From a virus (lineage: Duplodnaviria > Heunggongvirae > Uroviricota > Caudoviricetes), in IMG/VR virus record IMGVR_UViG_2541047745_000005, positions 1 to 29,610 of that record: DNA of 29,610 nt; one strand, written 5' to 3'. Positions 26,502-29,225 of this stretch are shown here, piece by piece. The position numbers were made by a program, and so were the translations under genes. Within the stretch, counting starts at the first letter, position 1. Each line of letters begins with the position of its first letter. The notes beneath the pieces are model-generated. The model saw only the letters and a list, made by a program, of their open reading frames with translations, made no database searches and was not told the DNA's origin.

Positions 26502-27248
26502 ATGCATCGTATAGACACGAAAACCGCGCAGAAGGATAAGTTCGGCGCGGGTAAGAACGGTTTTACCCGTGGTAACCCCCAGACCGGCACACCTGCCACC
26601 GATCTGGATGATGACTACTTTGACATGTTGCAGGAAGAACTTTGTAGCGTGGTGGAGGCCTCCGGTGCCAGCCTGGAGAAGGCGCGGCACGACCAGTTGC
26701 TTACCGCGCTTCGTGCGCTGCTGTTAAGCCGCAAGAATCCGTTTGGCGATATCAAATCGGATGGCACGGTGGAAACGGCTCTCGAAAACCTTGGTTTGGG
26801 AGAAGGTGCTCCAGCTATTGGCGTTCCGTTCTTCTGGCCGTCCGCTGCAATGCCAAATACTGTAATCGACAGCTGGTCCAGTATGGTGTTTTTGAAGTTC
26901 AACGGCGCGAAATTCTCTGCCACTGATTATCCTGTGCTGGCGAAAGTGTTTCCTTCGCTGGTATTACCTGAAGCCCGCGGTGATTTCATTCGTATCTGGG
27001 ATGACGGGCGAGGTGCAGACGGTGGTCGCGAATTATTAAGCTGGCAGGAAGCTACAAACTTTTCTCAGTTTGCCGGGAATATAGGCGGAGGTGCGGGACA
27101 CGCAATTAACTCTCATGATGGCATCGCCGGAAAACAGCCAGGATTTTCACGATTTAATTTCACCAGTAACTCTGTGGGTGATGGTGTGAATTTTGTTGCT
27201 GTCAGACCGCGAAATATTGCATTTAACTTTCTGGTGAGGGCTAAATAA
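26502..27248 (+). CDS. tail fibre protein: constant N-terminal part (to about codon 100) fused to variable C-terminal part Sv in the present orientation
   Basis: N-terminus [47 protein letters not shown] is the conserved opening of Mu S / P2 H-type fibres; the crossover site lies in-frame at the LGLGE codons (26790-26804). Confidence 0.8.
26784..26809. repeat. left recombination site for the serine invertase (Hin/Gin/Pin-type)
   Basis: GAAAACC-TT-GGTTTGGGAGAAG: imperfect palindromic half-sites around a central TT. The 15-bp core TTGGTTTGGGAGAAG (26791-26805) is exactly inverted at 28576-28590. Confidence 0.6.
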
Positions 27249-27841
27249 TGAAACCTGTTTTTGATGAAAATGGGCTGGCTACAGTGCCGGGCGATATGCG
27301 TTGTTTTTATTATGATGCTGAAACATCTGAGTATACGGGCTGGTCTGATGAATATATTAATACTGGCGTAAGTATACCCGCCTGTTCCACTGGTATTGAC
27401 CCGGGCGAAAACATTCCGGGAAAAGTGGCAGTATTTACGGGTAAGGGATGGAGCCATGAAGAAGACCATCGCAATGAGACCGTTTACTCAACTGAAAATG
27501 GCGCAGCTGTTACAGTGGATTATATCGGTGCCATCAAAGACGGTTATGTCACGCTTTCACCGTTAACGCCATACGATAAATGGGATGGTGAGAAATGGGT
27601 GACGGATACCGAGGCACAGCATAGCGCCGCAGTAGAAGCGGCAGAAGCACAGCGCCAGTCGCTGATTGATGCTGCAATGGCTTCCATCAGTCTGATTCAA
27701 CTGAAATTACAGGCTGGGCGGAAGCTGACGCAGCCAGAAAACACCCGACTTAACGCTGTGCTGGATTACATTGACGCGGTGACGGCAACAGAAACCAGCA
27801 CAGCGCCGGACGTCATCTGGCCTGAACTGCCGGAGGCGTAG
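27248..27841 (+). CDS. tail fibre assembly protein (Tfa, orientation A)
   Basis: 197 aa; TAATG overlap with the fibre gene; conserved Tfa-like C-terminal end ([12 protein letters not shown]). Confidence 0.7.
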   Translation: MKPVFDENGLATVPGDMRCFYYDAETSEYTGWSDEYINTGVSIPACSTGIDPGENIPGKVAVFTGKGWSHEEDHRNETVYSTENGAAVTVDYIGAIKDGYVTLSPLTPYDKWDGEKWVTDTEAQHSAAVEAAEAQRQSLIDAAMASISLIQLKLQAGRKLTQPENTRLNAVLDYIDAVTATETSTAPDVIWPELPEA

Positions 27842-28262
27842 GCCATTCAATATCTGGCGCACCGGAAGTATCGACCAGTTCCAGTGCGTCCAGATAATCC
27901 AGCCACAAATTATATTGCGCCAGTTCCTCACCTTTCAGACGACCAATTGATGCTTTACCTGGCCATTGTTTACTGTTGATGTATTCGTTGGCCTGGTTAA
28001 TCAATTGCTGCTTTTTAGTTTCGGCTGATGCAATTTGTTCTTCACGTGTTGGTGGAGGAATATCTGCCCATGCAGGCAGTCCATCCTCTCCGACACATCT
28101 GTATTTTCCTTCTGGTGGTGTATCATAGAAATATTCCCTGAAAATTACTTCGTCTATATCAACACCTTTTTCTTCAGGCCATTCACCTTTTTCAACATAA
28201 AGAGACTGAAGTTCGTAAGGATATGCCAGGTTGTTTACGTATAGATATTTCATCATTACCAA
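27813..28262 (-). CDS. tail fibre assembly protein (Tfa', alternative orientation)
   Basis: 149 aa on the minus strand; C-terminus ([11 protein letters not shown]) parallels that of the + strand Tfa; its 3' end overlaps the + strand tfa 3' end by 29 bp. Confidence 0.7.
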
Positions 28263-28585
28263 CCCTTAGCGAAAAACGCACCACCTTCAAGACCATAATT
28301 GCAGTGAGCTATGAAGCCGGTAGTGCTCCAGTTGGTTGCCCCCCACATATTCCCGCCCCCGAAACCACCATCGCACACAATTACAATGCCCGGTGTCTGT
28401 GTAAATGGAATCGGGAATGAAACATTGGCGGATACAGGCCCGTGTTCACCAGGAAAACTAATTCGTCCCCACTGTTCAATTGAACCATCTGGCATTTTTC
28501 GCCAGCCTGAACCTGATGCATATGATGACATATCAGGTATCTGATTTTCCCCTGTTCCCACATTTCGTTTTGCCGCTTCTCCCAA
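28256..28585 (-). CDS. alternative tail-fibre C-terminal segment (Sv'), silent in the present orientation
   Basis: Minus-strand frame is open right up to the crossover site and starts with the shared LGE codons (TTG GGA GAA), so inversion would fuse it in-frame to the constant fibre N-terminus. Gly-rich distal domain. Confidence 0.65.
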
Positions 28586-28601
28586 ACCAACCTTTCAAAT
28601 A
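28576..28601. repeat. right recombination site for the serine invertase
   Basis: CTTCTCCCAAACC-AA-CCTTTCAAAT; the core is the exact reverse complement of 26791-26805 and the central dinucleotide AA complements the left-site TT. Confidence 0.6.
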
Positions 28602-28661
28602 TTTTTCTGAATCAGGTGATATTTCGCCTCTTCTCCTGTTTTTACAACAGGAGAAGCACTC

Positions 28662-29225
28662 ATGATTTACGGGTATGTTCGTGTATCAACAAATCATCAG
28701 GATACAGAGTTGCAACGTCTTGCACTTGAGTCAGCTGGCTGTGAGCGAATTTATGAAGAATATGCCAGTGGCAGAACAGCTAATCGCCCTGTGTTAAAGG
28801 AATTAATTACGGTGATGAAAAGTGGAGATGAGTTGATTGTCTGGAAGTTAGATCGGATAGGGAGAAATGTGCTGCATGCGCTATTGATGTTTCAAAATCT
28901 GCACGAAAAAGGTGTTAATTTTCGGAGTATTACAGATGGCGTAGACCTGAAAACAGCAAGTGGTCGCTATAATTTCCGTAATATTCTTTCTGCTGCGCAG
29001 TATGAATCTGATTTGAATAGCGAGCGAACTTTAGCTGGTTTGGCTATTGCCAGATCCAAAGGCCGGATTGGTGGGCGTAGACCGAAGTTTAGCGACGAGC
29101 AGTGGAAACAGATGGGAGCGCTCATAGCGGCAGGGAAATCACGGCGTTATGTTGCACGTATCTATAACGTTGGGCTATCAACCCTATATAAACGATTTCC
29201 TGTTACTGGCATTCAAACGAAATAA
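28662..29225 (+). CDS. serine recombinase, DNA invertase (Hin/Gin/Pin/Cin family)
   Basis: N-terminal GYVRVSTNHQ with catalytic Ser in the conserved position, resolvase-type catalytic domain, C-terminal HTH (RRYVARIYNVGLSTLYKRF); 187 aa; adjacent to the invertible segment. Confidence 0.9.
   Translation: MIYGYVRVSTNHQDTELQRLALESAGCERIYEEYASGRTANRPVLKELITVMKSGDELIVWKLDRIGRNVLHALLMFQNLHEKGVNFRSITDGVDLKTASGRYNFRNILSAAQYESDLNSERTLAGLAIARSKGRIGGRRPKFSDEQWKQMGALIAAGKSRRYVARIYNVGLSTLYKRFPVTGIQTK

Follow-up and report, generated by a model that had tools for sequence, protein, structure and literature searches.

The 29,610-nucleotide (nt) stretch of a Caudoviricetes virus held as IMG/VR record IMGVR_UViG_2541047745_000005 (the window) contains, towards its right end, a tail-fibre gene, a second fibre C-terminus, two fibre assembly genes and a serine DNA invertase gene, arranged around two inverted crossover sites. 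It is very likely that these form a working inversion switch of the Hin/Gin/Pin family, a direct homologue of the P segment of the Escherichia coli prophage e14, within an apparently intact e14-related prophage beside dusA. The anatomy of the switch and its homology to e14 are plain, and both orientations of such segments are found in nature. The switch closely copies the long-known P segment of e14, whose crossover sequence has already been published, and it is not new in kind. The sole part that goes beyond the known is the invertase, which belongs to a divergent, uncharacterised Din-like clade conserved in several enterobacterial genera.

The proposed mechanism is as follows. The invertase, of 187 amino acids (aa), would bind both 26-bp sites, cut them at their matching central dinucleotides (TT at 26791-26792 and AA at 28589-28590) and rotate the 1.8-kb segment. 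In the orientation seen, fibre residues 1-101 would carry a 147-aa collar-like tip, followed by the 197-aa assembly gene. After inversion, they would carry an in-frame 106-aa gp53-like tip, followed by the 147-aa assembly gene. The displaced cassette, which has no start codon, would be silent. Progeny phage would carry one of two receptor-binding tips.

Crossover sites and the invertible segment

As an earlier note on this DNA had reported from the letters alone, a 15-bp sequence, TTGGTTTGGGAGAAG, occurs as an exact inverted pair. There are exactly two copies in the window, at 26791-26805 on the plus strand and 28576-28590 on the minus strand, and none of 100 dinucleotide-preserving shuffles of the window contained two or more matches. 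With a repeat finder the pair grows to arms of 20 nt (90% complementarity), which are separated by 1770 nt. The region 26300-29400 was scanned for further inverted pairs and none was convincing, the remaining ones being short and at chance level. A multi-site system such as that of p15B or some P2-like prophages was rejected, since only a single convincing pair was present in that region.

The cores of the two sites match, as the AA of the right site is TT on the opposite strand, and the 15 bp inward of each core are identical. The left core forms positions 2-3 of a Leu codon, CTT, in the N-L-G-L-G-E of the fibre open reading frame (ORF). The left site is thus inside the fibre gene at the L-G-L-G-E codons, as had been proposed.

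The earlier note also took both sites to be imperfect palindromes. This is true of the left site, where the two halves agree at 9 of 12 positions (good to fair) and both conform to the gix/cix half-site pattern. It is only weakly true of the right site. In the direction towards the centre its outer half is ATATTTGAAAGG, which agrees with the inner half at only 5 of 12 positions; this is not a good palindrome, and the site is family-like only in its inner half and core. The alignment to the family consensus that the note had suggested gave a similar picture. Three of the four half-sites (CTCTCGAAAACC, and TTCTCCCAAACC twice) fit the type TTxTCxxAAACC, but the right outer half retains only the A-tract, a departure that the invertase clade has in common.

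Fibre gene, the two cassettes and the product of inversion

The 248-aa fibre protein matches different PHROG tail fibre families in residues 1-100 and in its C-terminal part. Pfam gave nothing significant for it apart from a weak, sub-threshold match of the C-terminus to Collar (E 0.013). By its PHROG families, the protein is clearly a tail fibre with a collar-like tip. The annotation pipeline of the National Center for Biotechnology Information (NCBI) labels this fibre ‘integrase’ (WP_113414962.1) in several complete genomes. The fibre stop codon overlaps the ATG of the 197-aa assembly gene in the sequence TAATG.

The alternative fibre C-terminus has no start of its own, and there is an in-frame TGA within the outer half of the right site. 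When the segment 26791-28590 was flipped in simulation, a continuous fibre ORF of 207 aa ending in FFAKGW was obtained. Stop and start codons overlap again, as TAATG, where this ORF meets the minus-strand assembly gene, just as in the expressed cassette. The same 207-aa fusion is found at 99.8% identity in E. coli M8. As the earlier note had claimed, ORF 28256-28585 of the minus strand lies in the matching frame, and the flip does bring an alternative assembly gene (Caudo_TAP, 27813-28256, minus strand) into position. The swap of C-termini also stands, but the lengths given there, 150 and 105 aa, are measured here as 147 and 106 aa. The alternative assembly gene is annotated as 147 aa in an identical GenBank contig. 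None of the five proteins has a specific family in NCBIfam.

The two assembly genes converge, and their 3' ends overlap by 29 bp. Near these ends (27754-27841) there is an imperfect inverted repeat, 27754-27776 / 27783-27805, and a terminator-like hairpin on the minus strand at 27809-27795. These may serve as a terminator for whichever cassette is expressed after inversion.

Both orientations in Escherichia coli genomes

The four possible 400-nt junctions were built and searched in 5,426 complete E. coli genomes, and a genome was counted when at least 80% of a junction was covered. The left junction, which joins the constant part to a fibre tip, was found in the window orientation in 73 genomes and flipped in 18, the best of these being strain M8 at 99.8%. 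The right junction, which joins a fibre tip to the window-type invertase, was found in the window orientation in 15 genomes (RSHH22 and SK6988 at 99.8%) and flipped in 24 (RM9088, GPEC1240 and EC-07 at 99.8%). Left junction sequence has matches in about 2,000 genomes, and the window-type invertase with its right site is present in 87.

Two pairs of genomes carry the same DNA in opposite orientations. E. coli M8 and RSHH22 have the same prophage beside dusA, with common baseplate, YmfQ, both assembly proteins, integrase and invertase protein (WP_000639149.1). The flanks are 100% (left) and 99.94% (right) identical in the two genomes, and the 1,827-bp segments that they enclose have identical sequence in opposite orientations. 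CX15 and CX07 are sister isolates of equal chromosome length. Their flanks are identical and a 1,875-bp segment, which adjoins a PinE-type invertase, is exactly inverted.

The earlier note had held that a single orientation throughout related lysogens would speak against a switch; in the public genomes both orientations were found, including these two pairs. Inversion between such sites occurs in nature, including beside the WP_000639149.1 invertase allele. The exact cassette pair of the window was found in none of the 5,426 genomes, and so in none flipped either. The segment is mosaic, and the evidence for orientation therefore rests on sister prophages. The window’s own invertase presumably performs the flipping.

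Relation to e14, Mu, P1 and Hin

The e14 P segment, the G segment of Mu and the C segment of P1 are textbook cases of such switches. In MG1655, the gene order of e14 is ymfQ - stfP - tfaP / tfaE - stfE - pinE. The window has the same order of ymfQ, fibre, assembly gene, second assembly gene, second fibre and invertase, with the crossover at the same ...ENLGLGE... codons. All 26 positions of the left site are the same in e14 of MG1655 and in the window. In the right site of e14, TTCTCCCAAACC AA CGTTTATGAAAA, the inner half and core are as in the window. The published e14 repeat, TTGGTTTGGGAGAAGG, flanks a P segment of 1797 bp, which has been inverted experimentally by PinE and by PinQ in trans (PMC12529663). 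The window repeat, TTGGTTTGGGAGAAG(G), has 15 of 16 bases in common with it. Both orientations of the P segment coexist in MG1655-derived cultures (PMC4272514).

The window differs from e14 in several ways. The outer half of its right site is CCTTTCAAATAT instead of CGTTTATGAAAA, and its invertase is only 54% identical to PinE, so that the module from the right outer half to the invertase is a different one. The fibre tips are also different. The silent cassette of the window has no outside start codon, unlike that of e14. The prophage of the window appears complete and lies beside dusA; e14, by contrast, is a remnant whose end lies at icdC, a pseudogene copy of icd. The earlier note had described the switch as being of the e14 type in a compact 1.8-kb form. 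The anatomy is indeed like that of Mu, P1 and e14, but the relation to e14 is closer than this, being that of a direct homologue with the same sites. The size is also right, but it is not a novelty, since the e14 P segment is equally large (1,797 bp, against 1,770 bp between the repeats here).

Mu G with Gin and P1 C with Cin share with the window a constant fibre N-terminus, a crossover within coding sequence, a half-site pattern ending in AAACC, two convergent cassettes of tip and assembly gene, and an invertase just outside one site. From their records, the Mu sites are TTATCCAAAACC TC GGTTTACAGGAA and TTCCTGTAAACC GA GGTTTTGGATAA, and the P1 sites are CAATCCTAAACC TT GGTTTAAGAGAA and TTCTCTTAAACC AA GGTATTGGATAA. 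The Mu and P1 segments are longer, at 3 kb and 4.2 kb, with much longer fibres. The Fis/enhancer-contact residues are conserved in Gin and Cin (49-52% identical to the window invertase) but not here. Salmonella Hin and its hix sites share the recombinase family, the 26-bp site design and the 2-bp core. hixR likewise has a degenerate outer half. Hin flips a promoter, whereas the window element flips a cassette of coding sequence. Hin is strictly dependent on Fis through K47/R48/K51 and Q151/R154/L155 (PMC3798978), and several of these Fis-contact residues are replaced in the window invertase.

The invertase and its clade

In Hin numbering, the invertase has the catalytic residues R8, S10 and R43, and it also carries the LDRxGR motif. 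Its best matches in the PDB are Gin structures (E 2e-56). The ATG at 28662 is 59 nt past the right site, essentially the 60 bp given in the earlier note. That note’s assignment to the Hin/Gin/Pin type is borne out by the Resolvase and HTH_7 domains, the paired sites and the in-frame fusion, but the enzyme itself is not a typical member. Its identity is 49.7% with Gin, 52.2% with Cin and 54.3% with PinE, against 75-82% for any two of these three. It is not a PinQ/PinR-type invertase, which was rejected at 36% identity, and in NCBIfam it scores far under the cut-offs of other serine-recombinase models. Its closest known relatives are in phage SKA5 (99.5%, annotated as ‘DNA invertase’), in E. coli M8 (99.5%, annotated as ‘recombinase family protein’ WP_000639149.1) and in phage mEpX1 (74%).

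A scan of one genome per species identified 12 full-length homologues, in Kluyvera, Trabulsiella, Pseudocitrobacter, Erwinia, Morganella, Citrobacter, Shimwellia, Apirhabdus and an enterobacterial metagenome bin. These homologues, from 9 other genera, and mEpX1 all have the identical helix E, GRYNFRNILSAAQYESDLNSERT, in place of the GRFFFHVMGALAEMERELIVERT of the classical enzymes. The SKA5 and WP_000639149.1 enzymes have this same distinctive helix. Literature searches found no characterisation of the mEpX1, SKA5 or WP_000639149.1 invertases, and no literature on this clade or on switches of dusA prophages.

In the window enzyme, the Hin positions F105, H107, M109, L112 and M115 are Asn, Arg, Ile, Ala and Tyr. 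The pocket residues L67, L77 and I78 of Hin are Ile, Met (or Thr) and Phe. Johnson’s laboratory showed for Hin that F105 and M109 lock the inactive dimer, and that the F105N mutant inverts faster than the wild type and also works without Fis (PMC4513852). It further reported that only invertases dependent on Fis and the enhancer conserve K47, K/R48 and K/R51, with Q151, R154 and L155, and that the R154A change leaves Hin nearly inactive in Fis-activated inversion (PMC3798978). At these positions the window enzyme has K, E and T, and Q, A and L. They are not conserved in the clade as a whole. The triad of the DNA-binding domain is retained in one of the 12 homologues (Pseudocitrobacter), and that of helix B in one (a Kluyvera locus) as well as in phage mEpX1. 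The mEpX1 invertase (4001-4549) appears to be a mosaic. Its first ~60 residues are classical and Pin/Gin-like, including the basic residues of helix B, and from WKLDRIGRNVLH on it is nearly identical to the clade of the window. The mEpX1 annotation has no recognisable invertible segment beside this gene.

The invertase side of the switch appears to be a module of its own. In 10 of the 12 clade loci, across genera, the outer half of the right site starts with CCTTT; the corresponding start is CGTTT in e14, GGTTT in Mu and GGTAT in P1. This conservation indicates that the invertase gene and the outer half move together. The window element and PinE-type elements have the fibre-side site and the inner halves in common. 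In two clade loci whose upstream DNA is long enough, a partner site lies 1.9 kb away (Morganella) and 3.4 kb away (Erwinia).

Between the right site and the invertase there is a leader of 59 nt (28603-28661). Its predicted RNA fold is -24.8 kcal/mol (z -4.15 against shuffles) and includes a hairpin that pairs the Shine-Dalgarno sequence. This hairpin is kept in Kluyvera, Trabulsiella, Pseudocitrobacter, Shimwellia and Apirhabdus, with one compensatory change from C-G to T-A. It may act as a translational brake on the invertase. A scan of the plus strand from the right site to the invertase ATG found no consensus promoter. A promoter picked by eye (TTCAAA, 18 nt, GATATT) matches at 8 of 12 positions, too weak to claim.

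The earlier note had suggested that a Fis-dependent enhancer be sought in the 5' part of the invertase gene. The P1 record places the Cin enhancer at gene nt 19-90. Gin, Cin and PinE have two Fis-like 15-mers, at nt 23-37 and nt 71-85 as placed by a simple motif and the P1 annotation bounds, with a spacing close to the 47 bp between centres reported for hin. In the window there is a candidate proximal site, TATCAACAAATCATC, which is identical to that of Gin at 13 of 15 positions and lies ~100 bp from the right crossover site, a distance also seen in Mu and e14. The distal site, CAGCTGGCTGTGAGC, lacks the G at -7. This position, nt 71, is C in all members of the clade and G in the classical genes (Cin has the Ser codon AGC there), and nt 85, the C of the classical distal G...C, is C in only about half of the clade. 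The use of identical codons is raised over codons 1-24 in the clade (0.57, against 0.42 overall) and in the classical set (0.63, against 0.50 overall). Since both sets show this rise at the 5' end, the synonymous-site profile was rejected as a detector of enhancers. Because the invertase is atypical of Hin/Gin/Pin, the suggested Fis-dependent enhancer should not be assumed, and Fis dependence of this enzyme appears doubtful.

Alternative explanations

Several points weigh against a working switch driven by its own invertase. The outer half of the right site is a poor fit to the family half-site. The source element has been seen in a single orientation only, in the window, in the identical GenBank contig and in one run assembly. 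Another invertase in the same cell might flip the segment in trans, as PinQ does on e14, and for this reason M8 and RSHH22 do not prove that the window-type enzyme is active. The host-range difference of the two tips is an assumption carried over from Mu and P1; by that analogy the tips would give different host ranges.

The alternative that deserves most attention keeps the switch and changes its control. The invertase could work differently from Hin, Gin, Cin and Pin, either without the Fis/enhancer complex or under control of its expression, for example by a hairpin that sequesters the ribosome-binding site. This has a real chance of being right, although one clearly under even. The enzyme is only 49-54% identical to a group whose members are much closer to one another. 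The invariant helix E of its clade has Asn at the position of Hin F105, where the F105N change allows Hin to work without Fis (PMC4513852). Alanine at the position of Hin R154 is the very change that nearly inactivates Hin in Fis-activated inversion (PMC3798978). The C at nt 71 of the distal Fis-like site in every clade member and the conserved hairpin over the Shine-Dalgarno sequence point the same way. All of this is read from sequence, however. Fis sites are degenerate, and the placement of the two classical ones depends on a simple motif and on the bounds in the P1 annotation. The proximal site is largely retained at about the distance known from Mu and e14, the raised use of identical codons in codons 1-24 of the clade would fit an overlapping DNA element, and compensating changes elsewhere could restore Fis dependence. 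A bolder form of this idea is that the clade is a naturally Fis/enhancer-independent tail-fibre invertase. It would have a rebuilt helix-E lock (natural equivalents of F105N and H107R with a co-varying pocket), would be limited by the hairpin, and would act on an asymmetric right site, AAACC-AA-CCTTT. This is put forward tentatively and is slightly less likely still.

Two other explanations concern what the sites and the fibres are for. The repeats could be a shared module junction, with the ...ENLGLGE... linker serving as a joint where homologous recombination exchanges fibre tips between phages. Different parts of the segment do match best in different genomes, and the exact cassette pair is in no complete genome. 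In E. coli isolate 624 (NZ_OW967003.1, 33251-35160, compared with 26797-29256 of the window), similarity stops at 26797, in the crossover core. There the fibre N-terminus is continued by a tailspike-like C-terminus resembling glycoside hydrolase 55, no invertible segment is present and the invertase is reduced to a helix-turn-helix remnant, in a prophage that is otherwise collinear. This isolate suggests that the crossover site doubles as a junction for module exchange or deletion. The clean inversions of identical DNA in M8/RSHH22 and CX15/CX07 are predicted by site-specific inversion and not by module exchange, and an intact invertase gene adjoins the site. Module exchange and switching are not mutually exclusive, so exchange is better seen as an additional property, and as a replacement for the switch it is highly improbable. 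It is only slightly less improbable that the main selected role, in the lysogen, is host defence, with a fibre chimera that blocks the adsorption of other phages. This would follow e14, where inversion driven by PinQ or PinE at the same crossover sites yields a chimera that inhibits adsorption of T2 (PMC12529663). That chimera, StfE2, starts outside the segment on the invertase side. Here the TGA in the outer half of the right site closes that frame, so that no outside-initiated chimera can be made and the cassette on the invertase side is left without a start. The prophage also looks complete, and a host-range role in the virion is available to it.

As a host-range switch, the inversion system of the window adds little beyond the e14 P segment, Mu G and P1 C. 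It does show the state of e14 before decay, as the same switch is present in an apparently complete prophage whose backbone occurs in about 8% of complete E. coli genomes. In nature, one fibre-side site occurs with either of two invertase modules, whose identity is only 54%. The less common of the two (87 of 5,426 genomes) has, as its natural sequence, substitutions that free Hin from the need for Fis in laboratory experiments. It is a natural test case for the evolution of Fis/enhancer control in serine invertases, and it is a possible source of enhancer-independent invertases for engineering.

Prophage context and features of the window

The window is 100% identical to contig KE699700.1 of the E. 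coli assembly GCA_000457405.1. In that contig, the DinI-like gene at the right end of the window is followed by a tyrosine integrase gene and dusA. The window corresponds to the right-hand ~30 kb of a prophage beside dusA. Its first 25 kb are at least 80% covered in 434 of the 5,426 complete genomes (about 8%). A gp48-like baseplate gene is directly upstream of the fibre gene, in the same place as ymfQ in e14. A relative annotated by the NCBI pipeline has genes for lysis, terminase, portal, capsid, sheath, tube, tape measure and Mu-like baseplate proteins, and some of its genes bear e14 names (ymfK, ymfT, ymfL, ymfR and ymfQ). The host element is apparently complete, is related to the cryptic prophage e14 and has a Mu-like contractile-tail baseplate. 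The e14 of K-12 looks like a deletion remnant of this phage family. The features are collected in Table 1.

Table 1. Features of the inversion switch and its surroundings, in window coordinates.
Feature	Position	Strand	Remarks
Baseplate J gene	24865-25923	+	Pfam
ymfQ / Mu gp48-like baseplate wedge gene	25914-26498	+	Pfam Phage_Mu_Gp48 E 9e-27; PHROG baseplate wedge subunit
Tail-fibre gene as now expressed	26502-27248	+	248 aa; constant residues 1-101 and variable 147-aa C-terminus
Left crossover site	26779-26804		CTCTCGAAAACC TT GGTTTGGGAGAA; core TT 26791-26792, within codon Leu97
Invertible segment	26791-28590		1,800 bp with both core dinucleotides counted; 1,770 bp separate the 15-bp repeats
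Tail-fibre assembly gene of the current tip	27248-27841	+	197 aa; Pfam Caudo_TAP E 4e-26; PHROG tail fibre assembly E 4e-84
Alternative assembly gene, silent cassette	27813-28262 (ORF); ATG 28256	-	147 aa; Pfam Caudo_TAP E 5e-33
Alternative fibre C-terminus	28256-28590 (ORF 28256-28585)	-	106 variable residues after the common LGLGE; Pfam Gp53-like_C E 1e-7
Right crossover site	28577-28602		TTCTCCCAAACC AA CCTTTCAAATAT; core AA 28589-28590
Leader hairpin	28630-28640 / 28646-28656	+	11-bp perfect stem pairing the Shine-Dalgarno AGGAGAA
Serine DNA invertase gene	28662-29225	+	187 aa, catalytic Ser9; Pfam Resolvase E 3e-36 and HTH_7 E 2e-11
Stretch homologous to the P1 cin enhancer	28680-28751 (gene nt 19-90)		Alignment to the P1 annotation; function uncertain
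DinI-like gene	29362-29610	-	Pfam DinI

Two minus-strand ORFs of the window, 15944-16534 (196 aa) and 24408-24866 (152 aa), are antisense to plus-strand tail and baseplate genes of the relatives and are probably spurious.

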